Assembly: GCA_045612805.1 (NCBI GenBank)
Contig: JAZKZR010000010.1
Location: forward strand, 263,965 to 327,964
Length of the DNA: 64,000 nucleotides
Source: Candidatus Enterousia sp.
Lineage (GTDB): Bacteria; Pseudomonadota; Alphaproteobacteria; Rs-D84
Direction: 5' to 3'
This document shows positions 5,342 to 22,260 of the stretch, piece by piece. How positions within the stretch are numbered: the stretch's first letter is position 1; each line of letters starts with the position of its first letter. The notes beneath the pieces are model-generated. The model was not told the DNA's origin. It did not search any database and saw only the letters and a list, made by a program, of their open reading frames with translations. The translations under genes were made by a program, and so were the position numbers.

Positions 5342-6229
5342 TCAAATTTTGCTGGTTAATTCTTCAAAAGATTTGCATGCGTCTTCAAAGGATAATCTAT
5401 CTGTATTTTTTGCATATGACATATTTGCGACGTATTGTTCATAATCAGATTTGAATTGTTTGTTGTGTTGTAACAGGGTAATAACATCTTTTACGCACAC
5501 ATCAAAGGTATATTGAGTCCGCATGCGATGGCTCATGTCGGATTTAAAAACATCAAGCATATTAGATTTAAAGGTTCTATCAATATCAATCTTTGGTGCC
5601 AAGAAAAACAGATCGTGCAGATGTCGCATATCCGCAGGATTGTATTGAGATTTTTCTGTATCTGTTGATAAAATTCGCCATAAAAATGAACTGATTTTAT
5701 CTATAGTAGTATCTTCCAATGATACACATTTCAATTTGAATCCAGCATTTGTGCCAGCCAATTTGTCATAGAAAGAAGATATTTCTTTTTCCTCTGGTGC
5801 ATAAAATAAATTATCTGTAAAAAACACCTCTAATTTTATATAAGGTCGCAATGCAGAGTGTGTTTGAACAATGTTTTCTGTGTCTACAAATCTAAACTCT
5901 ATTTTACTGCTTTCGGGGACGGGTTCGGCAATAAGTTCAAAGCCATCCAAACTATGTGCAATATCAGTTAGCATTTTGCGAACATTGGCAGTTGATTTGG
6001 GGCGCGGAACAAATCTAAAATCAGCATCTTCACTGAAACGCTTGGTTAGCTCGTCATATGCACACACTAAACTGGTGCCGCCACCAAATATTAAATCACC
6101 ATCAGCAGAATGAAACCTTGATACCAACTGTTGAATAACTTGAATCAGAAAATGCTCTTTGATCGGAAAAGCAATATCACAACCCTTTTCAATAGCTATT
6201 TGTTCAAAAAGTTCCATATTTAAAGACAT
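5342..6229 (-). CDS. AbiEii/AbiGii family nucleotidyltransferase toxin
   Basis: Motifs FGGGTSL, RFSEDADF, DKISS, RHLHD. Confidence 0.9.
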   Translation of the reverse strand: MSLNMELFEQIAIEKGCDIAFPIKEHFLIQVIQQLVSRFHSADGDLIFGGGTSLVCAYDELTKRFSEDADFRFVPRPKSTANVRKMLTDIAHSLDGFELIAEPVPESSKIEFRFVDTENIVQTHSALRPYIKLEVFFTDNLFYAPEEKEISSFYDKLAGTNAGFKLKCVSLEDTTIDKISSFLWRILSTDTEKSQYNPADMRHLHDLFFLAPKIDIDRTFKSNMLDVFKSDMSHRMRTQYTFDVCVKDVITLLQHNKQFKSDYEQYVANMSYAKNTDRLSFEDACKSFEELTSKI

Positions 6230-6231
6230 AC

Positions 6232-6696
6232 TTAAACTCTTATTGCGCTGGTATTATACCATCTGTTTTTATATTTGCTATTGATTTGTTCAAAAGAAAC
6301 ATCAAAGCCATTATAGCTTATGTTTCGTCTAACACGTTTATTTACAGCAATAACTCTGCCTGTTGGAATCTGTGTTGATAAATCAGCATTGTATTCACGC
6401 CAATAAGTTGATTTATCAGTTTTAACACCAAGTTTTTGTAATGCTTCTTCTGCTAAATCTCCTATAGTGGCGTTTGGTGCGACAAATCCATTACTAAAAG
6501 TACGAGTTTTTGCGTATATACCACGTCCGATCTTAATTAACGTACCATTTTTTACCAATATGCGTAAAACACGCAAGACTTGATCATAGTCATATTCTTT
6601 AACAAGATCATTAAAGTCCTTTAAGATAAAAGAATTATCTTTGCTTTTCTTTATTCGTAATAAAATTCTCTCTAAAAGAGTTCTCTTAGCTTTCAT
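6232..6696 (-). CDS. AbiEi-like (DUF6088-type) type IV antitoxin
   Basis: wHTH-like N-terminus, LIKIGRGIY and YNADLSTQIP motifs; lies 2 bp upstream of the toxin gene. Confidence 0.85.
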   Translation of the reverse strand: MKAKRTLLERILLRIKKSKDNSFILKDFNDLVKEYDYDQVLRVLRILVKNGTLIKIGRGIYAKTRTFSNGFVAPNATIGDLAEEALQKLGVKTDKSTYWREYNADLSTQIPTGRVIAVNKRVRRNISYNGFDVSFEQINSKYKNRWYNTSAIRV

Positions 6697-6711
6697 TATA
6701 AATTCCTTTTA

Positions 6712-6754
6712 TGTCAATATACGACATTTAACATAGTGTCAATATACGACATTT
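6712..6754. promoter_or_regulatory. Tandem operator upstream of the AbiE operon
   Basis: 18-bp direct repeat TGTCAATATACGACATTT at 6712-6729 and 6737-6754; each copy contains the dyad TGTC-N7-GACA. Confidence 0.75.
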
Positions 6755-6846
6755 TCTTATAAAAATCAAGTCTTTTTTAGAGAAAGATCTTTTAGAGAAT
6801 ATATATAGCTATATCAAGAGTTATTTATGAGCTAACAATAACTATT

Positions 6847-6884
6847 ATTTTGATAGAAAAATATATACATTTTTCTATCAAAAT
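6847..6884. repeat. Perfect 16-bp inverted repeat between the AbiE operon and xis
   Basis: ATTTTGATAGAAAAAT-ATATAC-ATTTTTCTATCAAAAT. Confidence 0.8.
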
Positions 6885-7168
6885 CGATTCGTTTGAAAGT
6901 TATGATTTTTTGGTCGGGTGCCGTCGATGAGGGGGAGCAAAAAAATTTGACCAAAGTGCATTTTTATATGCTTTGATATGCTTTTGATACATTATGATAC
7001 AATTTCATTGCTAAAAAAAGTGTGTTTTTCTGCGGCTTTTACAAGACTTTTATTTTTTAGCATGCTATAATTTGCATGTAAGGATATCAAAAATTGCTGT
7101 GATTTTAGATGATACTTTACGGCGTTTTTTGAACCGAACAAAACCATCAAAACCCAAAGGAGAAAAAT

Positions 7169-7429
7169 ATGGAACATGAGTTCTTGAATTATGGGGGGAT
7201 GGAGAGAGAACCAAACTATAAACTTATAAATGTAAAGGAAGATGTTTTGAAAGATAGACTGCTTACACCAAGGGAGACAGCAGCATATCTTGGATCGTCT
7301 GTTTCGGCATTAAGCCAATATCGTGCGCTGGGTATTGGGCCTTTGTACTTCAAAATCGGCAAAATGGTGCGGTATCGCATATCAGATATAGATAAATGGC
7401 TGGAAGATAAGAAAAGCGGTGGAAAATAG
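7169..7429 (+). CDS. Excisionase / HTH_17 DNA-binding protein
   Basis: LLTPRETAAYLG...GPLYFKIGKMVRYRISDIDKWL; AAGGAG RBS; directly upstream of the integrase. Confidence 0.88.
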   Translation: MEHEFLNYGGMEREPNYKLINVKEDVLKDRLLTPRETAAYLGSSVSALSQYRALGIGPLYFKIGKMVRYRISDIDKWLEDKKSGGK

Positions 7430-7492
7430 TTGTTTCTACTGGATATTCCGTATTTATCGTGCATTGTGTAGCTGTAACAAAGGAGTACACAT

Positions 7493-8701
7493 ATGGCAGA
7501 ACAATGGAAATGTTATACTAAACCGTTTCGGGATACATGGATACATCTGTTGCATTCGGATGTGAATTTACAGGTAAGTGACGGGACAATCCCTGGGCTA
7601 TTCCTGCGATATTCGGCGGCAACACGCACTATCAGGTTTTTCTTGGGATGTAAAATAGATAAAAAGAAATGTAACCTTTATATCGGGCGATATAACGATT
7701 ATTCAATCAAAGATATTCGCGAAATGGCGTGGAATATGCGGCATCAAATTGCCCAGGGCCAAGACCCACGTCGCGAAAGAATAGAACAACAAATGAAAGA
7801 AAAAGAGGCACTTGGTGAAAAATTCCAAGATTTATTCCCTCAATACATGGATAAATACGCAAAAGTTTACAAGAAACCACGAACACAAGACTCTAATTGG
7901 GGCGAATATCGATTATATCTAGGGCCTATGTTTGATAAATTATACATGCGTCAGATAGAAGAAAAGCATGTAATGGATGCCTATGCTAAATGGGTAAAAA
8001 GGACATCGTTTTCAACCGCAAATAAAGCTTTATCATTATTCTCAAATTTCTGGGATTGGTGCGAAATGTATAAATACGTAGATCGTAATACTAACCCATG
8101 CAAATATGTTCGCAAAGGGGCAAACAAAGCCTATAAACCACAAATACTGGATCAAGACGGCTATCGCGCATTATCGCATGCGCTGGAAGTCGGGCCAAAA
8201 GTATCAAGAATGCATCCACGATTATTTAATGCACTGCGGGTTTTAATGCTGACCGGATGTCGCGCATCAGAAATAACAGGGCTGGAAGTAGACGAACTGG
8301 CACTGATGCACAAAGTGATACATTTGAAAGACAGCAAGACCGGTGCCAGGGATGTTAAGTTATGTGATGCGGTTATACCGTATTTACAGGCTGCGCTGGA
8401 TGAAGCAACTGCCTTGGGCAGTAAATATGTCTTCCCAGGTGTAGGCAATATCCGTCGCCCAATAAATAACATTCGCAAACCGTTTGAATGGGCACTGGAA
8501 TACGCAAAGTTACCACACATGCGAATACACGACCTACGACACTCGTTCATCAGCATGGGGGCGAATATAGGCGAAAATATGGCCGCCATGAAAGAAGCGG
8601 CAGGTCACAGTCGTATAACCACCACCGAAGGCTACACTCATATCATGGACAGCAGCACCTATCGCGCGATAAATAACGTTGCAAATGCAATATGTGGCTA
8701 G
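7493..8701 (+). CDS. Tyrosine integrase with N-terminal arm-binding domain
   Basis: Catalytic motifs LTGCRASE, KTG, HDLRH, GHS...TEGY. The N-terminus (D.TIPGLFLR...IGRY...GQDP) is typical of P4-like integrases. Confidence 0.95.
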   Translation: MAEQWKCYTKPFRDTWIHLLHSDVNLQVSDGTIPGLFLRYSAATRTIRFFLGCKIDKKKCNLYIGRYNDYSIKDIREMAWNMRHQIAQGQDPRRERIEQQMKEKEALGEKFQDLFPQYMDKYAKVYKKPRTQDSNWGEYRLYLGPMFDKLYMRQIEEKHVMDAYAKWVKRTSFSTANKALSLFSNFWDWCEMYKYVDRNTNPCKYVRKGANKAYKPQILDQDGYRALSHALEVGPKVSRMHPRLFNALRVLMLTGCRASEITGLEVDELALMHKVIHLKDSKTGARDVKLCDAVIPYLQAALDEATALGSKYVFPGVGNIRRPINNIRKPFEWALEYAKLPHMRIHDLRHSFISMGANIGENMAAMKEAAGHSRITTTEGYTHIMDSSTYRAINNVANAICG

Positions 8702-8733
8702 TTGTGCGCTGGTGTATCGTGATGAATCAAATT

Positions 8734-8756
8734 CGCCCCGTTACAGGGGCGTTTTT
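8734..8756 (+). terminator. Rho-independent terminator after the integrase
   Basis: CGCCCC-GTTACA-GGGGCG followed by TTTTT. Confidence 0.75.
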
Positions 8757-8894
8757 ATGGGGGTAACGGCGAGCGCAACACCTTGTTACACACACAACGT
8801 CAAAATGTGTTCGCAGTTCGCACTTTGTGGGTGTAAATCGCAGAAATCTGGCAAAGCAGGGGTGCGAACACATGCGAACACCTAGTGCGAACAC

Positions 8895-9176
8895 CTAATG
8901 TGATTTGAAGGTATACTTGCGACCTTTGTTCTGACCGGTGGCAACCAAAAAACCTTTATCTACTAAAACAGAAAACAATTGTCGGACACGTTGAGGGGAT
9001 TTGCCTGTGGCTTTTATTGCATCTGCAGCGGTGACTTCGCCCTTGGTAATAATGATCACTGCGATGGTTTTTAAGAACTTGTGTTCGGTATCGCTCAGCA
9101 TATCGATAGTTATATCGCTAACTTTTTTATCGCTACTAGTGATATATTGACGTTGGTTTGCAAAGTCGTCATACAT
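8895..9176 (-). CDS. Small winged-helix DNA-binding protein
   Basis: VTAADAIKATGKSPQRVRQLFSVLVDKGFLVATGQNKGRKY resembles the C-terminal wHTH of Fic/RecG-type regulators; AAAGGTG RBS. Confidence 0.75.
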   Translation of the reverse strand: MYDDFANQRQYITSSDKKVSDITIDMLSDTEHKFLKTIAVIIITKGEVTAADAIKATGKSPQRVRQLFSVLVDKGFLVATGQNKGRKYTFKSH

Positions 9177-10317
9177 AAAAATTCACCTTTCATAGGGTTC
9201 GTTTTTGATTCTAACCCATTTTTCCGAAAAATCTAGTCTTTTAGAAAGCCGTCTAACTGTCCTGTATTGTGGCGTATCATAAAAAATCAAAAAGGTACTG
9301 TCTGGACATTTTTCTACTGAGGGTAACGGCGAGCGAGGCACTTCGCTAGCGTCAGAACAAAAAATAGGTGCGCAGGTGCGCACTTTGGGTATTTATTGTG
9401 TAAAAACAAAGCGTTAAGTGCGCACCTGGGGTGCGCACCAGGTTCGCACCCATGATTTCAGTTCTGAAATCACATCTGAAATCAGATACGATATCGTGTA
9501 CGATTTCATATACGATATCGTGGGTAAAGAAAAAGAAAGAAGTAAGTAGTAAAGAAAAAGATAAATATAAAGAAAAAGATAATTGTAAAGAAAGAGAAAG
9601 AAGTAATGCAGGTTAAAATTGTTGAAAACCTGTTGAAAACTCACGCACATCTGTTGGTATAGTTTGTAATGCTTTGCAATGTGTTGATAACTATTTTGTG
9701 CGCACCAGATGTATCACAAAGTATCAATGTGTTTTGCTATGCAAGGATGATAGTTAGCAATATGGCTTGTTACATACAGAGCAAAAAAGGTGTCCGCAGT
9801 CCGCACTTTGGGTGTTTGTTTCGTAAAAACAATAAGTGCGTATCATTGGTGCGTGCCTAGTATGCATCAAAACAAAAAAGGTACTGTAACGGGAGTTTCA
9901 ATCAAGGGTAACGGCGAGCGAGGCACTTCGCTACACACAGGATATTTTTTTAAGCCGCATGCCGCACCCACACCTTAAATTAGCCTGAAATTAGACCTGA
10001 TATTAGCGGTAAAGATAAAGAAAAGTAGTATAGAAAAAGATAATGATAAAGATAAAAAATTGATAATTGTAAAGAAAAAGAAAGTAGTGTATACCGGTTC
10101 ACAGTTGAAAATTTGTTAAAAAATTATGTGCATCTGTTGGTATAAATTGTAATGTGCTAATCTGTTCACAGATAAATCTATATCCAAAAATTTCTTATTT
10201 TTTTATCCAAATGTATTGTGGTGTATCATAATGTATCAACTGCAAAATCTGCAGAAAATAAGGCCTTTACAAATGAAATTTTTTCATGCATGGTGGTAAT
10301 GAAGCAAAGGATTTTTT

Positions 10318-10689
10318 ATGAACGATTTTGAGTTTGTTGTTGATTTGTTAAGTAAAACAGGTGCTGTTGGCAACTGCATTATAGACCTGGAAATAACGAA
10401 ACGGAATTTTAATGCGTTAAAGGGCAACAATGATGTGCGGATACAAAAACAGCTCAACATCAGTTTGCAAAGATATCACAATGAAATTGACGAACTGCAT
10501 AGAATAGTTGGCGTCAATCTGCCATCGCCAAACGAACCAATACCACATAACCCCAGAAACGAATTGCAATATATTACCGACAGAATCCCCGCATATGTAG
10601 CCTTACGAGAACTAAAAGGCGACCTCAGAGCATATGCAATAGATTGTCTGTTGCCTAAATCACCAATATATAAATCCGGAGCTGTATAA
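10318..10689 (+). CDS. Hypothetical protein
   Basis: 123 aa ORF with AAGGA RBS; family not recognised. Confidence 0.65.
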   Translation: MNDFEFVVDLLSKTGAVGNCIIDLEITKRNFNALKGNNDVRIQKQLNISLQRYHNEIDELHRIVGVNLPSPNEPIPHNPRNELQYITDRIPAYVALRELKGDLRAYAIDCLLPKSPIYKSGAV

Positions 10690-10749
10690 TGCTGGGAACG
10701 AAAGGATATTTTTAAATGTAGTTGCGTAAGAAAATAAACTTAGTTTATA

Positions 10750-10778
10750 TTGATTTTTTTGTGTAGCAGATGTACAAT
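10750..10778 (+). promoter_or_regulatory. Sigma70-type promoter of the hsdR operon
   Basis: TTGATT-N17-TACAAT, 40 bp upstream of hsdR; the spacer contains TGTGTAGC. Confidence 0.6.
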
Positions 10779-10818
10779 AAAACGGAGTATAAACAATTTA
10801 CAACCTTATGGATGAAAC

Positions 10819-13800
10819 ATGGCTTTTAATGAAGATACCAGAGTAAAAATTCCCGCAATCTTAACGTTGACAAGATTGGGGTATAAATATTTGTCCTTGA
10901 AAGATAGACAAGATATTGATCCAAAAACAAACATATTTACTGATATCTTTTTTGAATGCCTGCAACAATTGAACCCAAACACAGAGGAAGAGGATCTAAA
11001 AAAGTATTTTAATAAATTGCAAACAATGTTGGATAATGATGATCTGGGGAAAGAATTTTACAATGCTTTGATAAACTCTTCAGGCATAAAACTAATAGAC
11101 TGGGACAATATAGGTAGAAATCAACTGCATGTTTGTACAGAGTTAACATGTGGAAATAAAGACGATGATAATTTTAGGCCAGATATCACGTTGCTCATGA
11201 ACGGCATGCCTTTAGCTTTTATAGAGGTCAAAAAGCCAAACAATCGCGAGGGTATATTGGCAGAACGAAACAGGATCAATGTTCGATTTAAAAATAGAAA
11301 GTTCCGTCGTTTTATCAACATCTCTCAGATTTTATTATTTTCTAACAACATGGAATATGACGAAGAAGATGTTGTGCCAATTCAGGGGGCTTTTTATGCT
11401 ACAGCTAGCAAAAGTAAAGCATTTTTTAATCAGTTCAAAGAAGAACCAAATAACAAAGCTTATTTGTATGGGTTGTTGCGTGATGAAAATGATAAAATAG
11501 AAAACGAAGTTCTGCGTGACACGAATTATGCAGTCATGAAATCCAGTAAAGAGTTTGAGGTTAATAAACAACCGGATACTCCAACAAATAGAGCGATAAT
11601 TTCTTTGTTTGCTCCAGAACGTATATTTGATTTTCTAAAATATGGCTTAGCGTACGTTGAATACGACGATGAAGATGGAAAGCATGTTTTGCAGAAACAC
11701 ATTATGCGTTATCCACAATTTTTTGCTAGCAAGGCAATACAAAACAAACTGGATAAAGGAGTAAAGAAAGGCATAATTTGGCATACCCAAGGGTCTGGGA
11801 AAACAGCATTGGCATACTTTAATGTGCGCTGGTTAACGGATTACTTTGCAAAAAAGAAGATATTACCAAAATTTTATTTCATTGTTGATAGAATCGATTT
11901 GCGAAATCAGGCGGCTAGTGAATTTTCAATTAGGGGGCTGAAAGTTAACAGTATAGAAAGCAAGGAAGATTTTATAAGTGATCTTAAGAAAAAATCTACG
12001 ATCAGCAGTACAACTGGCGAACGTGAAATAACAGTGTTAAATATTCACAAGTTTTCAGAAGATGCCAGAGCAACAACAGAAAAAGATTATGATATAAAAA
12101 CACAACGCGTTTATTTCATAGACGAAGCACATCGTAGTTACAATCCTAAAGGTAGTTTCTTGGCCAACTTGGCTCAGTCTGATCCAAATGCGATTATAAT
12201 TTCTCTTACTGGCACTCCATTGTTGGGTAAAGGTGAAAAACGTATCGCCAGTACAGGTATATTTGGGGACTATATACACAAGTATTATTACAACCAGTCT
12301 ATTGCTGATGGTTATACTTTACGTTTGATTCGTGAGGAAATAGAAACAGAATACAAAATACAATTAAAGGAAATTTTTGAAAAGTTAGAAGTCAAACAAG
12401 GTGATGCCCAAAAGAAACAGATTCTTGCTCATAAGAAATTCTGTACGCCATTATTGGAATACGTTGTAACAGATTTACGCAAAGCTCGCATACAGCACAA
12501 TGATGATTCTATCGGTGGTATGGTGGTTTGTGATAGTTCTGAACAAGCGGAAATGTTATCAAAGTTGTTCAAAGAAAATTATGAAGACAAAGCGAAAGAC
12601 AAACATACTCCGAATACAGCAGCTCTGATTTTACATAACGAAGGTGATAAACAGAGCAGAAAAGATGACATCAAAAGTTTTAAGAACGGAAAGATAGATA
12701 TTCTGTTTGTTTATAACATGTTGTTGACAGGGTTTGATGCACCACGATTGAAAAAACTGTATTTAGGACGTGTCATAAAGGAACACAATCTATTGCAAAC
12801 ATTGACTCGAGTCAATCGTCCATATAACGATTTTCGTTACGGTTACGTGGTGGATTTCGCTGATATTAAAGCCGAATTTGATAAGACAAATCAAGCGTAT
12901 TGGAAAGAATTACAGTCCGATTGGGGCGATGATATGAAGGGGTATGAAAACCTTTTCAAGTCAGCAGACGAGATAAAAGAAGACATAGAAAACATAAAGC
13001 ATGTTCTGTGGGAATATGATACAAAGAATGCGGAGATATTCCAACAACAAATAAGCGAAATAAAAGACAAGTCGTTGCTTTTAGACTTGGTAAAAGCACT
13101 TAAAAAAGCGGCAGAGTTGTTCAATCTTATCAGATTGAATGGTTATACCGATCTGTTGGATAAATTAGATTTTCATCAATTTAAAATACTCCAATCAGAG
13201 GCAGAACATAGAATAGCTCTTATCAACCAGAAAGAGGCATTGTCTTCGGGTGAAGATATAACAGGTTTGTTGAACGAAGCTTTGGAAGACTCGATATTTA
13301 TGTTTCGTAAAACTGGTGAAACACAATTAGATTTGGCAGCAAATACGTTTAAGGACACATTGCACAGAACTCGTGAGATGATGGGGCAAACTCCAGATAA
13401 AAAAGATCCAGAGTGGATTTCTTTGAAAGACGAAATAGAACGTTTGTTGAGAGATAAAAACTGGGAAGAGGCATCTGCAGAGGATATAAACGAAGGCACT
13501 AAGATACTAGAAGGTATTTATAGCAGAATTGCCGAATTAAACCGCAAAGACTCATTGCTTGCTCAGAAATACAATAATGATGTGAAGTATGTTCGGTTAC
13601 ACAAAGAATTTATGCGACAAGGCTTATCTAAAAACGAACAACAGGTATTTGATATCCTTATCGGAATAAAGAACGATACGGACGAAAAATTACTAAATTC
13701 AGACATTTTGAATAGCAATGAAAGTTACTTTGATGGCTATATACAACAGCAGGTTGTATTAAAATTCCGAGATGGTGGCGTTCATCTTAATCCGGAAGTT

Positions 13801-13866
13801 GCAAAACTTGTAAAAAATGCTATTGTCAAAGAGTACACAAATGAAAGAGAAGGTATTGTAGAATGA
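10819..13866 (+). CDS. hsdR: Type I restriction endonuclease subunit R
   Basis: RPD...IEVKK nuclease motif, HTQGSGKT Walker A, DEAHRS, LTGTP, MLLTGFDAP, QTLTRVNR. Confidence 0.97.
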   Translation: MAFNEDTRVKIPAILTLTRLGYKYLSLKDRQDIDPKTNIFTDIFFECLQQLNPNTEEEDLKKYFNKLQTMLDNDDLGKEFYNALINSSGIKLIDWDNIGRNQLHVCTELTCGNKDDDNFRPDITLLMNGMPLAFIEVKKPNNREGILAERNRINVRFKNRKFRRFINISQILLFSNNMEYDEEDVVPIQGAFYATASKSKAFFNQFKEEPNNKAYLYGLLRDENDKIENEVLRDTNYAVMKSSKEFEVNKQPDTPTNRAIISLFAPERIFDFLKYGLAYVEYDDEDGKHVLQKHIMRYPQFFASKAIQNKLDKGVKKGIIWHTQGSGKTALAYFNVRWLTDYFAKKKILPKFYFIVDRIDLRNQAASEFSIRGLKVNSIESKEDFISDLKKKSTISSTTGEREITVLNIHKFSEDARATTEKDYDIKTQRVYFIDEAHRSYNPKGSFLANLAQSDPNAIIISLTGTPLLGKGEKRIASTGIFGDYIHKYYYNQSIADGYTLRLIREEIETEYKIQLKEIFEKLEVKQGDAQKKQILAHKKFCTPLLEYVVTDLRKARIQHNDDSIGGMVVCDSSEQAEMLSKLFKENYEDKAKDKHTPNTAALILHNEGDKQSRKDDIKSFKNGKIDILFVYNMLLTGFDAPRLKKLYLGRVIKEHNLLQTLTRVNRPYNDFRYGYVVDFADIKAEFDKTNQAYWKELQSDWGDDMKGYENLFKSADEIKEDIENIKHVLWEYDTKNAEIFQQQISEIKDKSLLLDLVKALKKAAELFNLIRLNGYTDLLDKLDFHQFKILQSEAEHRIALINQKEALSSGEDITGLLNEALEDSIFMFRKTGETQLDLAANTFKDTLHRTREMMGQTPDKKDPEWISLKDEIERLLRDKNWEEASAEDINEGTKILEGIYSRIAELNRKDSLLAQKYNNDVKYVRLHKEFMRQGLSKNEQQVFDILIGIKNDTDEKLLNSDILNSNESYFDGYIQQQVVLKFRDGGVHLNPEVAKLVKNAIVKEYTNEREGIVE

Positions 13867-15485
13867 ACGATTACACGATCCAGACAAAACAGTTAATCGA
13901 TGAACTGAAAGCTATTTGCACCAGTAATGGTCTTGGTAATGATGGAAATGAATTTAAGATCATAACACAGGTCTTTTTGTACAAGTATTTAAACGACAAG
14001 TTTATGCACGAGATTAAACTGGCGGATCCAAAATTACATAATGCAGGAAACGTAGAAGCAATATTACAGAACTATTCGGACGATGATTATGAAATGTTGT
14101 TAATGTCTCTGCATCCTTCGGCGGCTCGACTGAAAAGAGAGCATTTCCTGTCTTTCTTGGCTGGTCATGCAAATGATGACGATTTTCATAAACGGTTTGA
14201 TGATACATTGGCGGATATAGGTAGATTTAATGAGGCCATATTCTCTATCAAAACAGATAGCGGAGCAAAGGTAGTCTTGTTTGATGAATTATCACAATTC
14301 ATTACTGATCCAAGCAAGCGAGACGGTTTCTGTCGTGCTATTATAGCAAGATTGACCGAGTTTAGTTTCGAACACGTATTCGATGCAGGATACGATTTCT
14401 TTGCAACAATATTTGAATACTTGATTAAAGATTACAATAAAGACGGCGGCGGCAAATATGCTGAGTATTATACACCTCATGCCGTTGCTCGTATAATGTC
14501 AGCTATTTTGGTTGACGGTAACCCGACAAATGTAAAGGTATATGACCCATCGGCAGGCTCGGGAACTTTGTTGATGAGTATCGCACACGCTATCGGTGAC
14601 GATAAATGCACAATATATTCACAAGATATATCGCAGAAATCGTCTGGGATGTTGCGTCTGAATCTTGTGTTGAATAATTTGGTTAGTTCAATTCCTAACG
14701 TTATTCAGGGTAATACCATATTATCCCCAAGACATTTTGATAAAGAGGGCAATTTACAAAAGTTTGACTATATAGTATCTAATCCGCCATTTAAATTAGA
14801 TTTTAGCGATTTCAGGGCAGATTTGGATAAGCCAGGTAATAACGAAAGATTCTTTGCTGGCATACCCGCTATACCGAATAAATCAAAGGATAAAATGGCA
14901 ATATATTTGCTTTTTATTCAGCATATAATGTTTTCTTTAGCGGACGAGGGCAAAGCGGCTATCGTTGTGCCAACCGGATTTATTACCGCACAAAGTGGTA
15001 TTGAACGCAAGATACGTGAAAGGATGATAGAGAAACAGTGGTTGAAAGGTGTTATTTCTATGCCATCCAATATTTTTGCAAATACTGGAACAAACGTGTC
15101 TGTTATATTCTTGGATAAATCAAATAAAGACAAAGTTGTATTGGTTGATGCCAGCAAACTTGGTACTAAGGTAAAAGATGGTAAAAATCAAAAGACAATT
15201 TTATCACCAGAAGAAGAACAAAAAATCATAGATGCATTCAGAAATAAGCAAGCTGTTGATGATTTTAGTGTGGTTCTGTCTTACGATGAAATAAAAGACA
15301 AAAACTATTCGTTCTCGGCCGGTCAGTATTTTGATGTAAAAATTGAATATGTCGACATTACGGCAGAAGAATTTGAAGCGAAAATGACCGCCCACAAACA
15401 AGCATTAAAAGATATGTTTTCTCAATCACACGATTTGGAAAACAATATCATAGAACAGTTAGGTAAATTGAAGTTTGGAGAATAG
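13863..15485 (+). CDS. hsdM: Type I R-M N6-adenine methyltransferase subunit M
   Basis: EYYTP, YDPSAGSGTLL and NPPF motifs; 4-bp overlap with hsdR. Confidence 0.97.
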   Translation: MNDYTIQTKQLIDELKAICTSNGLGNDGNEFKIITQVFLYKYLNDKFMHEIKLADPKLHNAGNVEAILQNYSDDDYEMLLMSLHPSAARLKREHFLSFLAGHANDDDFHKRFDDTLADIGRFNEAIFSIKTDSGAKVVLFDELSQFITDPSKRDGFCRAIIARLTEFSFEHVFDAGYDFFATIFEYLIKDYNKDGGGKYAEYYTPHAVARIMSAILVDGNPTNVKVYDPSAGSGTLLMSIAHAIGDDKCTIYSQDISQKSSGMLRLNLVLNNLVSSIPNVIQGNTILSPRHFDKEGNLQKFDYIVSNPPFKLDFSDFRADLDKPGNNERFFAGIPAIPNKSKDKMAIYLLFIQHIMFSLADEGKAAIVVPTGFITAQSGIERKIRERMIEKQWLKGVISMPSNIFANTGTNVSVIFLDKSNKDKVVLVDASKLGTKVKDGKNQKTILSPEEEQKIIDAFRNKQAVDDFSVVLSYDEIKDKNYSFSAGQYFDVKIEYVDITAEEFEAKMTAHKQALKDMFSQSHDLENNIIEQLGKLKFGE

Positions 15486-15489
15486 CAAA

Positions 15490-17079
15490 ATGAAAATGAG
15501 AAGGTTGCATATTCATAATTATAGATCAGTAAAAGATTCTGATATTGATATGCAAGATTATTCTTTGCTTGTAGGAAGTAATAACGTTGGGAAAAGCAAT
15601 GTAATTGATGCAATACGTTGTTTTTATGAGGATATTAAATTTGAACCAAGTGATTTGTGTAACAAGCACGATCCAGAAGATAGATTGTGTTGGATAGATG
15701 TAATTTTTGATTTGACGGATGATGAATATGATAGTTTAAAAGAAGAATATAAAATTGAAAAGAATAAATTAAAAGTAAGAAAGTTGTTGGTTCAAGATGG
15801 AGAAAGGAAGCCAGCGATATATGGGTATACTGCCAAAGGTATGGAAGATAGTCCTTTTTATGGCGCAAAAAATGTGCAACAAGGAAAATTAGGGCACATT
15901 GTTTATGTTCCAGCGATTTTAGATGTAAAAGAAAATACAAAGTTGACAGGATCGTCTTCTTTAAGAAACTTGTTAGAAATAGCTTTTAATAGCACCCTAG
16001 AAAAGGATGTAAATTATCAAGAAGTAGCAAAAAGTATAAATAAATTAACAAATTCTATGAAAGCAGAAGGTTCTGGGGCATTATCTAAACTAGAAACAGA
16101 TATAAATAATGAGCTTGATGATTGGGGTATTAACATAAATTTTAAATTGCGAACACCATCTGCGAATGACATACTTAAAAATATGCTTGATTATAATATG
16201 CAAGAAAGTGATCAGGAGATTTCGTTAGAACGTTTGGGGACAGGTTTTCAAAGACATTTTATATACAATCTTATAAAATTAAGCAGTAATTATACGGAAG
16301 TAAAAGAAAAGAAAGATAAAGATTTTACCCCAAACATGACGTTGTTGTTATTCGAAGAGCCAGAAGTGTTTCTTCATCCAACAGCTCAAGAAAATTTATC
16401 TTTGTATTTACGCAAGTTTGCATCACACAGCACAAACCAAGTTTTGATTTCTACACATTCTAGTCAGTTTGTATCTATGAATATTATGGATATTTATTCT
16501 ATAATAAGGTTAGAAAAACAAGATGATATTACTCATATTTATCAAATGAAATTATCTATAGATGAATTAGAAAAATGTAAAAATTTAGTGTTTTTCGATA
16601 GACCAAGGAGTGATTTGTTTTTTGCTACAAAGGTTATTTTAGTCGAGGGTGCTACAGAATATATGTTTTTTAATTATATAAAACAGAAAAATTTAATTGA
16701 TACAGAAAGCACAACGAAAGTTTGTTGTATTGATACGTTGGGTAAGCAAAGCATGCCATATTTCATTAAAATATTAAAAAATTTTCATATAAAGTATTCA
16801 GTGCTATGGGATCTTGATACAAAACCAAATGTTGACCCAATGACAAATCAGCATAATAAGGCAATAGTCGAATCTTTTGATGAGCTAAAAGAATATCACT
16901 ATTGTTTTGAGAAAAATATAGAAGTGTTTTTGACTGGTGAAGAATGGGATCATAATGGAAACAAGGTAGTATCTTTTATAAAGAAAGTAGAGAATGGGGA
17001 GGTGGCGGACGAGAAAAAAGATGAGCTGATACAGATTTTTCAGAATTTAATCACCAAGCAAGAAGGTTTAAATGAATAA
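15490..17079 (+). CDS. OLD-family ABC ATPase-TOPRIM nuclease
   Basis: Walker A GSNNVGKS, signature LGTGFQR, Walker B FEEPE..LHP, STHS; TOPRIM motifs ILVEGATE and DLD. ATG 15490 follows GGAG. Confidence 0.9.
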   Translation: MKMRRLHIHNYRSVKDSDIDMQDYSLLVGSNNVGKSNVIDAIRCFYEDIKFEPSDLCNKHDPEDRLCWIDVIFDLTDDEYDSLKEEYKIEKNKLKVRKLLVQDGERKPAIYGYTAKGMEDSPFYGAKNVQQGKLGHIVYVPAILDVKENTKLTGSSSLRNLLEIAFNSTLEKDVNYQEVAKSINKLTNSMKAEGSGALSKLETDINNELDDWGININFKLRTPSANDILKNMLDYNMQESDQEISLERLGTGFQRHFIYNLIKLSSNYTEVKEKKDKDFTPNMTLLLFEEPEVFLHPTAQENLSLYLRKFASHSTNQVLISTHSSQFVSMNIMDIYSIIRLEKQDDITHIYQMKLSIDELEKCKNLVFFDRPRSDLFFATKVILVEGATEYMFFNYIKQKNLIDTESTTKVCCIDTLGKQSMPYFIKILKNFHIKYSVLWDLDTKPNVDPMTNQHNKAIVESFDELKEYHYCFEKNIEVFLTGEEWDHNGNKVVSFIKKVENGEVADEKKDELIQIFQNLITKQEGLNE

Positions 17080-17557
17080 AAAAGATTTGCTTGTTAGTTT
17101 GTTAAAAGAATCTGTTGATAAGTTATATCAGGAACAGGTTTGTTTGTTAGTTCGTTCTGGTATGGAACAAGCAGCGGTTGCTAGAGTGTTTTTTTACATG
17201 CAGATGGCACTTTATACAGATCCTAGGTTTATTCAGTTCAGATCGTTGTATTTAGATTCTGAATATAATAAAAATGGTGTTGCACCGAAAATATTATATG
17301 GTGCTTCTACTAGACCGGATTTAATTCTTCATAATAGATGTTGTGGAGAAACATCAACAAATGTATTGGTTGTAGAATTTAAAGTTGAAAATGAAAATAT
17401 AGAAGATGACTATAGAAAATTACGTGGTTACACATCTCAATATGAACAATATAAATATTTTTTAGGTGTTTCTGTTAAATTAAATAGAGAAAATGCGTTG
17501 TACAAGTATTTCCAAAAAGGTCAGGAAAAAGATGAAGCAGGATTATGTGTAGAATAA
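17072..17557 (+). CDS. Putative PD-(D/E)XK nuclease
   Basis: DSEYNK, RPDLILH and VVEFK motifs; overlaps the end of the OLD gene. Confidence 0.65.
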   Translation: MNKKDLLVSLLKESVDKLYQEQVCLLVRSGMEQAAVARVFFYMQMALYTDPRFIQFRSLYLDSEYNKNGVAPKILYGASTRPDLILHNRCCGETSTNVLVVEFKVENENIEDDYRKLRGYTSQYEQYKYFLGVSVKLNRENALYKYFQKGQEKDEAGLCVE

Positions 17558-17574
17558 GAAGACAGGAGTAAGTA

Positions 17575-18162
17575 ATGCCCCAAAAAGATAGATTAAGAAG
17601 TTTGTATGATTTTCAGTATGGTTTAGGTAATGTTAATCCTGATAATGGTGGACAATATCCTGTTTACGGCAGTAATGGTATTATAGGGTACTATGATCAG
17701 TATAATTCTGAAGACGCGCCTGTTGTGGGGCATATTGGGGCAAATGCGGGCGTGGTTGTTTTTGGTAGAGGAAAACATTATGTTACATACAATGGGGTTA
17801 TTTGTAAAACCAAAGACGGAATAAATAGCAAATACGCATATTATGTGTTGTTAAATGCTAATCCTAAGAAGTTAACACGAGGCAGTACCCAACCTTTTAT
17901 ATCCTATGATATATTGAACGATATTCCTATTTTAAACCACGAACAACAAGATCAAATAAAAATAGGGAATGTTCTTTCTGCGCTGGATGAAAAAATAGAA
18001 TTGAATAACAAAATCAATCAAGAGCTAGAAAAAACGGCGAAAGATCTATATAACTATTGGTTCGTTCAGTTCGACTTTCCTGACGGAAATAAACGACCGC
18101 TTCTTTCCCGCATTTTCCACCTGTTAAAGCAAACCAGAAATTTGGAGGTGTGTCTTGCCTGA
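17575..18162 (+). CDS. hsdS: HsdS N-terminal half cassette (TRD-A), currently truncated at the inversion site
   Basis: One TRD plus the conserved helix LDEKIELNNKIN..LE..AKDLYNYWFVQFDFPD. Homology stops at KRP (18099) and an unrelated tail follows. Confidence 0.88.
   Translation: MPQKDRLRSLYDFQYGLGNVNPDNGGQYPVYGSNGIIGYYDQYNSEDAPVVGHIGANAGVVVFGRGKHYVTYNGVICKTKDGINSKYAYYVLLNANPKKLTRGSTQPFISYDILNDIPILNHEQQDQIKIGNVLSALDEKIELNNKINQELEKTAKDLYNYWFVQFDFPDGNKRPLLSRIFHLLKQTRNLEVCLA
18075..18099 (+). repeat. hsdS inversion site 1
   Basis: CTTTCCTGACGGAAATAAACGACCG is the exact reverse complement of 20044-20068. Confidence 0.92.
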
Positions 18163-19420
18163 CATAAAAGCATTTCGTCTTAAGGATATAGGTCTATCAC
18201 AAACAGGACCGTTTGGAAGCCAATTGCATGAAAATGACTATGTTTCTGTTGGAACCCCAATAGTCACTGTCGAACATTTACAAGAGGAGGCCTTTTCTAC
18301 TCAAAATCTTCCTTTTGTATCTGATAAAGATGTAAAACGCTTATCTAAATACGTGTTAAAAGAAGGCGATATTGTTTTCAGTAGAGTCGGCTCTGTTGAT
18401 AGAAGTACATATGTATCTAAGAAAGAAGAAGGATGGTTGTTTTCTGGGCGTTGTTTAAGAGTTAGAATAGATAAAAACAAAGCAAATCCAAAGTTCATAA
18501 GCTTCTATTTCAGACTTCAGAAGTTTAAAAACATGATGCAAAACATATCTGTAGGGGCGACGATGCCATCCTTAAACACACATTTGATGGATAATATAAA
18601 ACTTTATCTGCCAAGTTTACCCGAGCAAAATAATATCGCTGAAGTATTAGCCTCTATAGATGAAAAAATTTTATTAAACAAAAAATTAAATGATGAATTA
18701 GAAATTGCAGCAAAGGATCTATACAACTATTGGTTTGTCCAATTTGATTTTCCTGATAAAGATAAACGACCGTATAAATCCAGCGGCGGCAAGATGGTTT
18801 ATAACGAGATTCTTAAACGTGAAATTCCAGAAGGTTGGGAAGTTGAAAGTATTGCTGATAACAAACTCTCAAAAATCTTAAAACCAGGAATAAAACAATT
18901 TGATGGACAAAAGATATATTTACCGACTGCCGCTGTAGAAAACGATCGTATTATAGATAAATCAAATTTGATTACTTATGACAATCGCGAAGGTCGTGCC
19001 AATATGGAACCTGTTGATAATTCTGTATGGTTTGCCAAAATGAAAAACACAAAGAAAGTATTATATTTTGGAGATTATTCATCTCAACGAATAAGTCAAA
19101 CAATACTTTCTACTGGTATGCTAGGCTTAAAATGTGTTGAAAACGCTTTAGAATATATATGGAACTTTGTAAACGATGATTCTTTTGAAGCTGTAAAAAA
19201 CAAGTTGTCTCATGGGGCTACTCAAGAAGGCGTCAATAATGATGATTTGTTGTATTTTCCAATGCTAATTCCATCAATAGAAACCTTACGTAATTATTCT
19301 GTGTTAGTAAAAGATTTATACAAACAGAAATATTTCAATGAAATTGAAAACGAATGTTTGGCAGAACTCAGGGATTTCTTGCTTCCGATGTTAATGAACG
19401 GTCAGGTTTCAGTTTCTTAA
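18155..19420 (+). CDS. hsdS: Type I R-M specificity subunit S, full length (TRD-B + TRD-C)
   Basis: Two TRDs, central YWFVQFDFPD...YKSSGGKMVYN..LKREIPEGW and terminal LRDFLLPMLMNGQV; TTG start after GGAGG. Confidence 0.95.
   Translation: MPDIKAFRLKDIGLSQTGPFGSQLHENDYVSVGTPIVTVEHLQEEAFSTQNLPFVSDKDVKRLSKYVLKEGDIVFSRVGSVDRSTYVSKKEEGWLFSGRCLRVRIDKNKANPKFISFYFRLQKFKNMMQNISVGATMPSLNTHLMDNIKLYLPSLPEQNNIAEVLASIDEKILLNKKLNDELEIAAKDLYNYWFVQFDFPDKDKRPYKSSGGKMVYNEILKREIPEGWEVESIADNKLSKILKPGIKQFDGQKIYLPTAAVENDRIIDKSNLITYDNREGRANMEPVDNSVWFAKMKNTKKVLYFGDYSSQRISQTILSTGMLGLKCVENALEYIWNFVNDDSFEAVKNKLSHGATQEGVNNDDLLYFPMLIPSIETLRNYSVLVKDLYKQKYFNEIENECLAELRDFLLPMLMNGQVSVS
18762..18804 (+). repeat. hsdS inversion site 2
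   Basis: 43 bp ATAAACGACCGTATAAATCCAGCGGCGGCAAGATGGTTTATAA is the exact reverse complement of 20012-20054. Confidence 0.92.
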
Positions 19421-20022
19421 TCTGATACTGACACTTGGCCATTCATAAGCATAGGCAATAAAAAGTCACGCAAATTAGACAATATTTCATTTTCTTGTTT
19501 GTTTTGTAATATTTGATTGATGATTTGCTTGTTTCGCATTTCAAAGTTTTTTAATAGCGTATCATTTGGAATTGCTATATTGAGGTTTCCCAATATTTCA
19601 CCATTTAAAGATGCCCTTGTTGATGCCATACAAGCATTATATAAATAGTTATAAACAGAATCCGATTCTAAAAATTTACGTATATATTCTTGTCCATATA
19701 GTACATTAACTTTTATCTTTGATAGTGCTACATTGTATGCTCCCGCTAACCCATATCTAACACGTCCAGCATCGCCATATTTATCCATCATTATATCAAA
19801 AACATCGCACACTTTATTATTCTTAGACTCCTTGATATATGTTACATTTGTATCGCCTGCATAATCTCTATTTTGAATAAATCTAACATATCCATTTTGC
19901 GGTTGATAAATAAAAGTTGCTTTTGGTGGTTGTGCACCACTTATCCATTCAACGATATCAAGTAGATTTTTAACTTCCCAGCCCTCAGGAATTTCGCGTT
20001 TTAGTACGTCATTATAAACCAT
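19417..20022 (-). CDS. hsdS: Inverted HsdS C-terminal half cassette (TRD-D)
   Basis: MVYNDVLKREIPEGW...LRDFLLPMLMNGQVSVSD; the frame extends upstream through FPDGNKRPYKSSGGK to 20067. Confidence 0.9.
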   Translation of the reverse strand: MVYNDVLKREIPEGWEVKNLLDIVEWISGAQPPKATFIYQPQNGYVRFIQNRDYAGDTNVTYIKESKNNKVCDVFDIMMDKYGDAGRVRYGLAGAYNVALSKIKVNVLYGQEYIRKFLESDSVYNYLYNACMASTRASLNGEILGNLNIAIPNDTLLKNFEMRNKQIINQILQNKQENEILSNLRDFLLPMLMNGQVSVSD

Positions 20023-20068
20023 CTTGCCGCCGCTGGATTTATACGGTCGTTTATTTCCGTCAGGAAAG
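20012..20068 (-). repeat. hsdS inversion site 3 (partner of sites 1 and 2)
   Basis: Composite of the 25-bp and 43-bp inverted repeats, which overlap at the shared core ATAAACGACCG (20044-20054). Confidence 0.92.
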
Positions 20069-20108
20069 AGGTGTGCTAGCCTATGAGTTACATAAAAAGA
20101 GGTATGGT

Positions 20109-20705
20109 ATGATTTATGGATATATAAGGGTTAGTACGAATACACAAACGACCGATAATCAGAAATTTGAAATAGAACAATTCGCAAAAAAACAGGGAAT
20201 AAGAATAGATAAATGGATAGAGGAAACTATTAGCTCCAGGCAAGAGCTATCTAAACGTAAGTTAGGTCTTTTAATAAAACAAATACAAAAAGGCGATGTT
20301 TTAATATCAAGCGAATTATCTCGTCTTGGACGAGATTTGTTGCAGATAATGGGAATTTTAAACCATTGTATGAATATAGGGGCTGATATATGGACAATAA
20401 AGGACAATTATCGGTTAGATGCTGGAATACAAGGTAAAATATTAGCTTTTGCGTTTGGGTTAACTGCAGAGCTAGAAAGAAATCTCATTTCACAACGCAC
20501 AAAAGAGGCATTAGCGGCTCGTAGAGCAGCGGGTATGGTGTTAGGCCGGCCTTACGGTAGTAAAAGTAGTTATTTAAAACTGTCCGGACGGGAAAACTTT
20601 ATATGCAATATGCTGAATAGAGGATGTTCAAAGACGCAGATAGCCAAAAAATTATGTGTTAACAGAGAGACATTAACAAATTTCATAAATAGTCAGGGGT
20701 TGTAA
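20109..20705 (+). CDS. Serine recombinase / DNA invertase, Mpi-like family
   Basis: MIYGYIRVST (catalytic Ser), SELSRLGR, WTIKDNYRL...KILAFAFGL.AELERNLISQRTKEAL, LGRP and a C-terminal HTH. ATG 20109 follows AAGAGG. Confidence 0.93.
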   Translation: MIYGYIRVSTNTQTTDNQKFEIEQFAKKQGIRIDKWIEETISSRQELSKRKLGLLIKQIQKGDVLISSELSRLGRDLLQIMGILNHCMNIGADIWTIKDNYRLDAGIQGKILAFAFGLTAELERNLISQRTKEALAARRAAGMVLGRPYGSKSSYLKLSGRENFICNMLNRGCSKTQIAKKLCVNRETLTNFINSQGL

Positions 20706-21680
20706 TTATATAGTGAATTTTTTAGGTAGTATTAAAGGCACGTTTTCAAAATTGTTAACAAGTCTAGTTTGTATAACTGGACCGTTTTGGGTTTGGGTGA
20801 CAATTGGTTGAAATTTGGTTGTGCTATTGCGTCTGTTTTTAACAAACTGCTTTAATCCATCATCTAAGTATGATGATATAACAAAGCGATTAGCATTAAA
20901 AATAGCAGGTTCGTTAATTCTGGAAACAGTTCTTTGTGCATATTTCCAAAATTTTGATATTTTACCGTATGACATTTGTCCGGGGCTCACTTTGGTAAAA
21001 TCAGAAAATCCTGGTTGATAAACTTCTGGTTGCACAACCAATTTAGGTGATATTCTCAAAAATGTATGCGGATCCAACACAAAGCCTAATGGTTGATATA
21101 GCGGTGGAACGGTATCGTTAAGACATAGATAATGAGCTGGAAAATCACATGTTATAAAAGGCATATCAGTAAAATTATAAGTTAAATGCCAATCATATGC
21201 ATATAGCAACATACCTATCTGACGGGCTTGTTGTAAATTACGTTTTTTTAATGCGAAGTTTAAATCCTGAGATTTTGGATCTACATTTTGTCCAAGTAAT
21301 TGTAGAGATAAATAGTCGTACTCTTTTCTTGCTGGTGACATTGCAAACAAAATAGCAAGCCATGTTGCAAAATAGTACCTATCATGGTCTGAAATTTTCT
21401 CCCTTTTTAACCCTTGTAAAAATGGCCCAATATGTGGTTCTAAAGCTTTCAAATGATCCGATAAATATGTATCTGTGCCTTCTGTATCTAATTTATCCCA
21501 ACCTAATTCATAACATATACGTTTTGTTGGGGCTTCAAACCATCTGTCTTCTTGTCTATCATAAACATGTAATTTATTTGTGTTTTTATCAATAAAACGA
21601 CGTAAGTAAACCTGTGGCACAAAGTGGTCTTTGTTGTCTTGTTTGGGTAAAGATTTTGTTCCGTTGCTCATGTGTACCAT
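20706..21680 (-). CDS. DUF4238 domain protein
   Basis: N-terminal HFVPQVYLRRF and later FITCDFP, both characteristic of DUF4238. Confidence 0.8.
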   Translation of the reverse strand: MVHMSNGTKSLPKQDNKDHFVPQVYLRRFIDKNTNKLHVYDRQEDRWFEAPTKRICYELGWDKLDTEGTDTYLSDHLKALEPHIGPFLQGLKREKISDHDRYYFATWLAILFAMSPARKEYDYLSLQLLGQNVDPKSQDLNFALKKRNLQQARQIGMLLYAYDWHLTYNFTDMPFITCDFPAHYLCLNDTVPPLYQPLGFVLDPHTFLRISPKLVVQPEVYQPGFSDFTKVSPGQMSYGKISKFWKYAQRTVSRINEPAIFNANRFVISSYLDDGLKQFVKNRRNSTTKFQPIVTQTQNGPVIQTRLVNNFENVPLILPKKFTI

Positions 21681-22174: not shown

Positions 22175-22260
22175 AGACAATCCTTTTAAGGTTGTCGTAT
22201 TTGGCATAATGTTTCGGCAAAAGTCCAGTTATTTGTTAAAAATATAGCAAGACATTAACT

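Follow-up and report, generated by a model that had tools for sequence, protein, structure and literature searches.

In a stretch of 64,000 nucleotides from the genome of Candidatus Enterousia sp. (assembly GCA_045612805.1, contig JAZKZR010000010.1, positions 263,965 to 327,964; hereafter, the window), a defence island carries an array of repeated DNA modules at 8703-10300, between the gene of a tyrosine integrase (int) and the defence cargo. We observed that these modules are homologous to regions of lambda-like temperate phages, that in the phages they occupy fixed positions relative to the packaging genes, and that their repeats covary with the DNA-binding end of the small terminase subunit (TerS). 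In our judgment, the island is probably a satellite that carries only cis-acting sites derived from such phages and can serve several helpers. It is likewise probable that the array holds three cos-type sites, one relic of the repeat side of such a site, and two non-coding origin-like copies. A more specific version is put forward more tentatively; here, an integrative defence island devoid of initiator, primase, TerS, Rpp, and capsid remodeller would be replicated and packaged by helpers by means of a multi-key cos bank and orphan origins.

C modules and the phage packaging operon

An earlier note on this DNA had described the array as a bank of diverged copies of one origin-like unit. Instead of copies of one unit, we found two kinds of modules, C and O, interleaved with each other and with a third element, the T box. 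An alignment of 37 distinct C modules revealed a constant order: an invariant AGGTnCTGT box (the left box), about 19 nt, the invariant GAGGGTAACGGCGAGC of the core, a short inverted repeat, CAGAA, a run of A, and a tandem pair of a 7-8-nt word. The word differs between elements (the words seen were GTTCGCA, GTCCGCA, GTGCGCA, GGCCGCA, GGTACGCA, and GGTGAAC), and the same word recurs inverted, in two to three copies, about 45 nt beyond the direct pair. Over the 37 modules, the core and the left box were invariant or nearly so and the repeats were class-specific; the expectation that the scaffold is kept while the repeats vary between relatives was thus borne out by the comparison across related genomes. 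We also considered an RNA hairpin or inverted repeat around the core and rejected it on a pair count made on the 37 modules (76.1% paired compared to 75.8% in shuffled sequences, with the covariation reached in 257 of 500 shuffles).

In eight phage elements, namely the prophages L061, L067, L077, and L079 and the viral contigs L081, L084, L085, and L086 (L and G numbers denote loci and genomes, respectively), the C module precedes a ParB-methylase gene, terS, terL, a 73-aa gene, and the portal gene. For example, in L079, TerS belongs to phrog_57, TerL matched GpA_ATPase (7e-93) and GpA_nuclease (1e-85), the portal protein matched Phage_portal_2 (6.5e-102), and the protease matched Peptidase_S49. 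The phage gene order around the module is the order of the lambda head genes, and in the lambda sequence that we fetched cos lies just before Nu1. In small satellites (L025, L026, L063, L065, L071, and L074), the module fills a gap of about 100 nt immediately upstream of terS, whose product in L025 matched phrog_57 (8e-30). Two marks of a lambda-type cos, a position that opens the packaging operon ahead of terS and a TerL partner of the gpA family, were therefore both found in the related phages.

The C modules are probably cos-type sites, with a cosN-like core as the cutting region of TerL and cosB-like words as the sites of TerS. The scaffold GGGTAACGGCGAGCG, AAAAAGGTACTGT, and CGCACTTTG, which the earlier note had taken for part of an origin, stands in the phages before terS and a gpA-type terL, and the supposed iterons TGCGAACAC and GTGCGCACC belong to the packaging-type module and covary with the DNA-binding end of TerS. 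Because of this position and this covariation, both are read here as packaging sites.

The resemblance to the lambda cos region (cosQ-cosN-cosB) concerns the location, since the site stands before terS of a gpA-type terminase, as well as the build, with a conserved core that looks like a cutting site and variable repeats in both orientations. In the fetched lambda region, CGTTTCC, GGAAACG, and CGTTTCC lie in this order between the cutting site and Nu1, in the same mix of orientations; these elements are known as R3, R2, and R1. Lambda R-type repeats function in TerS binding, as described in the available part of PMC6739421. A weak likeness is also seen in the core, which shares GGG..CGGCGA..TTCGCTA with the lambda sequence. 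Unlike in lambda, TerS belongs here to phrog_57 and had no match to any Pfam family, including Nu1; a ParB-methylase gene separates the site from terS in these phages; the cohesive ends are a prediction; and three differing sites stand in a row on an element without a terminase.

The module starts the late (packaging) operon in the phages and precedes the cargo in the islands, and inverted repeats flank its core. Such an arrangement might also be expected of a region that controls the late operon through a promoter or antiterminator and activator sites and puts the cargo under phage control. We find this scarcely credible, as a promoter scan returned fewer sigma-70-like sites than shuffled sequences and none at the core, no RNA family was matched (the Rfam search of 6500-11000 gave just two sub-threshold chance matches), the inverted repeats had no covariation, and the repeats covary with the DNA-binding end of TerS across a conserved intervening gene.

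The covariation, which bears directly on the reading of the C modules as cos-type sites, was observed as follows. In 20 of 20 elements having both data, the word class was paired with one variant of the N-terminal helix-turn-helix (HTH) of TerS; six classes and one variant were represented. The word TTCGCA went with HRGVSD[AT]AVRRAIDD in 6 elements, TCCGCA with HRGVDDKAVRNAIAT in 2, TGCGCA with HRGVYESAVRKAISA in 1, GCCGCA with ALGVNESSVRKAERS in 1, and GTACGCA with HRKVTEGAVRKAIAT in 3, while GGTGAAC went with [HR]RGVAVSAVQKAI[ED] in 6 satellites and the TTCGCT / TTCACA variant with HRGVTEAAVRRAIEY in 1 element. All four classes present in the window have phage partners: 6 for TTCGCA, the class of module C1 (L066, L067, L084, L086, L089, and L090), 2 for TCCGCA, the class of C2b (L061 and L081), 1 for TGCGCA, the class of C2 (viral contig L085), and 1 for GCCGCA, the class of C3 (viral contig L088; the island L078 has this class as well).

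The comparison indicates that the pairing goes beyond shared descent alone, since the class follows the N-part of TerS across flanking genes that are more than 90% identical. For example, L088 (class GCCGCA) and the phages L066, L086, and L090 (class TTCGCA) are 90-92% identical in the ParB-methylase and 95-97% identical in the upstream gene k7, and their TerS proteins are 65-82% identical in the C-part; the N-part is just 35% identical, and the word class differs. Conversely, L084 and L089 share the class of L066, L086, and L090, with 85% identity in the N-part of TerS and 46-48% in the C-part. A third mark of a lambda-type cos, cosB repeats matched to the DNA-binding domain of TerS, was thus present in the comparative data, also across mosaic joints. 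Lambda and phage 21 make up a known pair of cosB-TerS specificities and, as in their cosB-Nu1 pair, the repeats here vary together with the DNA-binding N-terminus of TerS.

Several minor observations concern the core. A metagenome contig (at position 9915 of L067, run X8) matches the phage as far as the final base of the core, beyond which it has the hairpin variant of a different class; this indicates that the core is a mosaic joint between elements. A search of sequencing runs with the cos region of one phage returned 24 runs, all of them assembled contigs and hence carrying no information on DNA ends. In the 4 runs compared, the contigs cross the core uninterrupted, and assembled contigs are uninformative on cutting. 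One-mismatch matches to the core in L060, L064, and L069 lie inside coding sequence with no surrounding module and were dismissed as chance. In L101 (G195:C19), the core is present without the left box or the repeat pair, and this locus was left out of the module set.

Origin-like modules and gene c4

The O modules, O1 and O2, have a different counterpart in the phages. In a BLASTN comparison with the fetched loci, they matched all the phages about 1.4 kb upstream of the C module. In 11 of 11 phages, the O-type structure lies inside an early gene, c4, and consists of 3-5 iterons with a 12-bp period and a TGAWWTCA-like word, a 90-nt purine-rich tract, and 2-4 TGTTGAAAAC boxes. The suggestion that iterons would be found inside phage genes held in this sense, with the initiator role of c4 being putative. 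At the DNA level, O1 matched the interior of c4 in phages, as well as the non-coding O modules of other islands, at 66-79%; it mixes the iteron types TGAAATCA (as in L079 and L062) and CGAWWTCG (as in L067 and L100), and the iterons of O2 are those of the phages L066 and L090. O1 and O2 are non-coding, since the c4 protein has no match in the window. These modules are likely to be non-coding copies of the intragenic origin-like region of the phages.

The description of the modules as origin-like therefore survives for O1 and O2, which have an origin-like build, and fails for most of the "iterons", which are probably packaging sites. A broader idea, of a bank of cis-acting sites matched to several helpers, fits the comparative data with the change that most of the sites would serve packaging and would not be origins.

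The lambda origin lies inside gene O, and phage origins are found inside replisome-organizer genes. As in lambda, the iterons stand beside an A-rich, strand-biased tract, in an early gene, within a linker between folded domains. In the AlphaFold model of c4 (mean pLDDT 71), the folded domains comprise residues 1-72 and 130-200, and the O-type DNA encodes the disordered linker of residues 73-129. Unlike O, c4 is not an O homologue and is a putative initiator; furthermore, the island keeps the structure without the gene. Among 30 Atlas neighbour clusters of c4, 28 had DUF6291, and in one of these 76% of the members also had the replication-initiation domain DnaB_2.

The distance between the two boxes separates coding from non-coding copies. 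In all 11 phages, and in both islands with c4 retained, they are separated by 12 nt; in all 13 non-coding copies from islands, the distance is 11 nt, which breaks the reading frame. The 13 copies probably descend from one event; they would then represent a conserved non-coding lineage rather than independent selection. The phage coding parts between the origin and cos (the ends of c4, c2, and c11, about 1.4 kb) are absent from the array, and the site motifs are kept.

The earlier note had stated that no initiator gene is recognisable in the island, and this proved correct: c4 had no tblastn match in 6500-11000, and in one-protein searches neither c4 nor the gpA-type TerL was matched anywhere in the source genome (0.97 Mb, 96.8% complete). 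In the Pfam and PHROG searches of the island, no initiator or rep gene was recognised, the matches being to HTH, int, and defence families only (orf123 and orf161 had no assignment), and no gene for packaging or capsid redirection (terS, rpp, ppi, sid, or cpm) was recognised either.

Phages, satellites, and islands of the genus

We searched 328 genomes of the order for the core, with one mismatch allowed. The core was present in 43 of them, all from one genus (42 of 256 other genus members and the source genome, G000), and in 0 of 71 genomes from the other 29 genera of the order. A control with the reversed pattern gave 12 single matches, and the occurrence of the core is not a chance effect. 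A stricter pattern matched 11 contigs of IMG/VR, 8 with the whole module and 3 by chance. A loose genome-wide pattern scan was discarded; it returned at least 119 stretches and, among the matches listed, these came mostly from taxa that were unrelated by title. The contexts were compared for 20 single-copy loci and then for 12 regions (array and single-copy), with open reading frames called and clustered by BLASTP; L060, L064, L069, and L101 were excluded.

Three types of elements were distinguished. Type A comprises prophages and viral contigs (L061, L066, L067, L077, L079, and L100; L080, L081, L084-L086, and L088-L090), with the gene order int, a dozen small early genes, the module, ParB_N + N6_N4 methylase, terS, terL, the 73-aa gene, portal, and protease. 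Type B comprises small elements by tRNA-Arg(tct) (L025 in G035, L026 in G017, L063, L065, L071, L074, L098, L099, and L102-L104), with early genes including a c4 homologue with its own iterons, then the module, terS, a small ORF, and int; their size is 5-6 kb (in G017, about 5.4 kb from the tRNA to the next host-like gene). The type B repeat class, GGTGAAC, is private and absent from all 14 phages, and these elements look like an undescribed satellite family with its own TerS. Type C comprises islands with an alpA-like gene, int, non-coding modules, and cargo; there are single-module islands (L062, L068, L070, L072, L073, L075, and L076), a two-module island (L078), and the three-module array. 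As side observations, a type A prophage (L100) and a type B satellite (L065) occur together in genome G107, and G218 and G226 each have a three-module island and a type B satellite.

The three-module array was found in nine genomes (G000, G002, G011, G155, G161, G216, G218, G226, and G092, with two modules before the end of the contig). The nine genomes have 26 array cores, 23 of them exact and 3 with one mismatch. Besides that of the window, 6 arrays were aligned with their flanks, and the order of classes is the same in all but G155, whose C2, like that of the partial G092, carries a TTCGCA-like word. The aligned arrays share the backbone and differ in the cargo: type I restriction-modification (R-M) genes and an OLD nuclease in the window, a KAP-NTPase gene with other partners in G002, G226, G216, and G011, and orf123 with a 1340-aa protein in G155 and G218. 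Other type C islands carry an AAA_21 ATPase set or a Sacsin/NOV_C protein.

The array thus heads defence cargo here and elsewhere, its repeats match phage classes and not a private class as in the TerS-bearing satellites, and the source genome, with no match to the gpA-type TerL, has no resident helper. These facts would also suit a decoy defence, in which chromosomal sites soak up or misdirect the terminase and the initiator of a phage, for example by packaging without termination, and lower the burst. We regard a decoy as quite improbable. The intact int and alpA-like gene, together with the turnover of cargo on a constant backbone, speak for mobility; a handful of copies in the chromosome would titrate a replicating phage only weakly; and a literature search gave no precedent.

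A number of points weigh against the island being a satellite with usable sites. With respect to packaging, we infer cos rather than pac from the terminase family alone. The link between TerS and the repeats could in part be an effect of shared descent, as a distance of 0.1-1.5 kb separates the two loci and there are few classes, each with 1-6 elements. With respect to replication, c4 is weakly based as an initiator: its Pfam match to DUF6291 (E 0.0015) falls short of the curated threshold, and the N-domain of c4 is near-identical in phages with different iteron variants, with no covariation. Three fold searches of c4 were uninformative, with no result from PDB profiles, no Foldseek match at E 0.001 or better, and a Z of at most 5.3 in the wide VIA search. 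With respect to mobility, we found no att-like direct repeats of 16 nt or longer flanking the island; the left flank was found in 4 of 120 other genomes, and the search returned no empty site and no right boundary. Conservation of the array may reflect recent common descent rather than selection; as the arrays are 79-93% alike, the two are inseparable.

Decay of the modules counts on the same side, and it is what one would expect if the array were inert, passively carried debris from repeated recombination, at the shared core, between a resident island and newly arriving phages or satellites. The left box of C1 is missing in all the arrays, C2b is without a core, and C3 is without inverted repeats in the window; G216 has lost the repeat pair of its second module (C2), and of the 6 other arrays only about 3 align with O2. 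Debris would also agree with the switch of variant exactly at the core end in the contig from run X8 and with the G017 locus, which is left with the alpA-like gene and a cut-off int only. On the other hand, nearly all of the array cores are exact, int and the alpA-like gene are intact, the 1.4 kb of phage coding parts was lost cleanly with the site motifs retained, and a constant backbone with differing cargo is expected of an active platform. We consider inert debris unlikely.

Another alternative, raised in the earlier note, was that the repeats are stacked relics of att arms. Nothing was found to support it: neither att-like direct repeats nor a tRNA fragment turned up, and the distance between the module and int in the phages is 5-6 kb.

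For a satellite that carries only sites, we propose the following route. A phage of a matching class would infect the cell or be induced, the island would be excised by int and the alpA-like protein, and its origin copies would be fired by the phage initiator. The TerS of the phage would bind the matching repeats, its gpA-type TerL would cut the core, and concatemers of the island would be packaged into phage heads, spreading the defence genes. With several specificities side by side, the island would have more helpers to draw on. We infer this excision, replication, cutting, and transfer from sequence comparison.

To our knowledge, the known phage satellites all bring at least one helper-subverting protein. 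The closest system for comparison is EcCICFT073, a cos-type PICI of E. coli, which is similarly an integrative island with int and alpA, phage-like cosQ and cosN, and two cos sites. In the available part of its description, the two sites have different cosB, the private cosB is read by the element's own Rpp, and only cos1 is needed (PMC6739421). Unlike EcCICFT073, the present island has no recognisable Rpp/TerS-like or replication gene, and its repeats equal those of phages. Satellites related to cos-type PICIs carry defence hotspots, according to PMC9122126. PICMI of Vibrio is likewise described, in the accessible part of PMC10803314, as minimal, with alpA and int as core genes and without capsid remodelling, and as being packaged as concatemers; it keeps a primase, and no cos or pac site is identified in that part of the paper. 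The present island resembles PICMI in its very small gene set and its predicted total dependence on helper particles, and an island of its size would need concatemers; unlike PICMI, it appears to have sites only and no primase. The logic is also that of oriT-only elements (pOriT and iOriT) and multi-oriT plasmids, which, as told in the excerpt of PMC11389934, have only the helper's cis site and widen their range with several sites; those elements are conjugative, and the island would be the phage-packaging counterpart. In the literature on multiple or tandem cos sites and on satellite cos, we found no site-only island with multiple specificities.

If the proposed reading is true, any of several co-circulating lambda-like phages could replicate and package the island, and the lower bound on what a satellite needs falls, as DNA sites alone suffice. 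It also suggests that many "immobile" defence islands would move by borrowed packaging. The six repeat classes with six TerS variants make a natural data set on how a small terminase reads DNA. Candidatus Enterousia is an uncultured alphaproteobacterial lineage of the gut with genomes below 1 Mb, and the words "phage" and "prophage" are absent from the available part of its genome paper (PMC12306168). The present data outline prophages, TerS-bearing satellites, and site-only islands in this genome-reduced genus and, if the reading is true, they would be the first phage-satellite network described in it.

Layout of the array and the island

We read the sequence of 8400-10600, ran a repeat finder, and counted motifs over the whole window; every motif listed in the earlier note was recovered at or near its place. 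All modules described below are on the plus strand. The 15-mer GGGTAACGGCGAGCG starts at 8761, 9321, and 9906 (spacing 560 and 585); these are the only copies in the window, and there is no further copy in the 0.97-Mb genome. A BLASTN search of 8703-10300 against plasmid and phage collections gave no match.

The array begins at 8703..8751 with a T' box (TGTGCGCTGGTGTATCGTGATGAATCAA; repeat family D3), followed by the terminator hairpin of int (a terminator-like hairpin at 8734-8751). The cos-like module C1 (8761..8898, class TTCGCA) has its core at 8761-8775, the direct pair at 8809-8823, and three inverted copies at 8863-8894; its repeats are complete, and the box that is missing is AGGTWCTGT. 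The word TGCGAACAC is at 8863, 8873, and 8886, with an inverted copy at 8807, and CGCACTTTG is at 8819, 9379, and 9802, that is, in C1, C2, and C2b. The array is in part coding, as a conserved gene of a 93-aa winged-helix protein lies inside it on the minus strand (8895..9176; weak Pfam match to MarR_2, E 0.005). This ORF is kept in every array whose contig reaches that far and in the island L078, with identities of 92% in G002 and 77% in G011.

A second T box (9263..9290, repeat family D3) leads to C2 (9283..9452, cos-like, class TGCGCA), which is complete: the left box is at 9289-9301, the core at 9321-9335, the direct pair at 9368-9383, and the inverted copies at 9418-9450. Here AAAAAGGTACTGT starts at 9289, with its other copy at 9875, in C3; GTGCGCACC is at 9418, 9431, and 9698, with inverted copies at 9375 and 9430. 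The origin-like O1 (9453..9720) follows, with iterons of about 12 bp at 9453-9522 (including TCTGAAATCA at 9463 and 9475 and TACGATWTC at 9487, 9499, and 9511), an A/G tract at 9523-9606, two TGTTGAAAAC boxes at 9620-9639 (TGTTGAAAA at 9620 and 9631), CATCTGTTGGTATA at 9648, and TGTTGATAA at 9682.

The core-less relic C2b (9766..9860, class TCCGCA) retains the repeat side only, with the pair at 9792-9806 and repeat families D6 and D8. C3 (9869..9970, cos-like, class GCCGCA) has the left box at 9875-9887, the core at 9906-9920, and the direct pair at 9954-9967. The second origin-like module, O2 (9973..10165), has three CCTKAWATTAG iterons at 9973, 9984, and 9996, an A/G tract at 10007-10090, two boxes 11 nt apart, and CATCTGTTGGTATA at 10131.

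The array is closed by a third T box (10212-10239) and a conserved leader ahead of the cargo (10212..10300 together). This segment matched, at 77-86%, the islands L068, L072, L073, L075, L076, and L078 only, with no match in phages. The T box (TGTATYRTGGYGTATCAT-type) consists of three short repeats about 10 nt apart, and there are three direct copies 3' of int and an inverted copy at about 6975-7003, upstream of the alpA-like gene. T boxes are restricted to islands, where they are always ahead of the cargo, and may be operators for the alpA-like or the 93-aa winged-helix protein.

On the left side, the homology of the island begins within 6836..7168, as all related islands begin to align at 6836-6848 regardless of the upstream DNA. 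The alpA-like HTH_17 gene, of the excisionase/regulator type (7169..7429, plus strand; Pfam HTH_17, E 3e-08), stands ahead of int and is kept in related islands. The tyrosine integrase, with an arm-binding domain, is encoded at 7493..8701 on the plus strand (Pfam Phage_integrase, 8e-19; Arm-DNA-bind_3, 2e-09) and is 91-99% identical to its counterparts in G002, G016, and G019. The island is thus small and combines an integrase with an AlpA-type regulator, as phage satellites do. The gap between its left end and the host gene (6232-6696) holds two copies, 25 nt apart, of a perfect direct repeat of 18 nt (TGTCAATATACGACATTT; 6712-6754).

Of the 4 genomes with the left flank, one, G017, was compared, and its junction gave no right end for the island. 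In that genome (L229, G017:C17; compared with 5344-7674 and 50680-54266 of the window), the alpA-like gene is followed by only the first ~180 nt of int, then by about 5 kb of other genes, and then by DNA that is 43 kb distant in the window. This indicates that the neighbourhood of the island is rearranged between species.

The first gene after the array, orf123 (10318..10689, plus strand), had no Pfam or PHROG match and is 72-74% identical to the gene in the same position in L075 and L076. The type I R-M cargo identified by Pfam (hsdR, hsdM, and two hsdS; 10819..19420, plus strand) follows. Within the R-M operon, the interval between hsdM and hsdS (15475-17079) holds the OLD-family nuclease (AAA_15 with OLD-like TOPRIM) and a 161-aa gene, orf161. 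At 17575-20705, the two hsdS genes in forward orientation precede an hsdS fragment in inverted orientation (19417-20022, minus strand; Methylase_S, 1e-06) and then a serine recombinase gene (20073-20705; Resolvase, 3e-32), a layout that suggests a phase-variable switch of type I specificity.

Further along there are more genes of defence type, DUF4238 (20706-21680, minus strand) and GmrSD (22283-24061, minus strand), and between them lies a 159-aa gene (21728-22207, minus strand) with 87-90% DNA identity to a gene of the type B satellites. A search for copies of the end of tRNA-Asn returned none. The segment 20706-24395 ends at this tRNA-Asn, which in the genus is flanked by other phages and islands (L062 and L090), and is probably a second mobile-element remnant.

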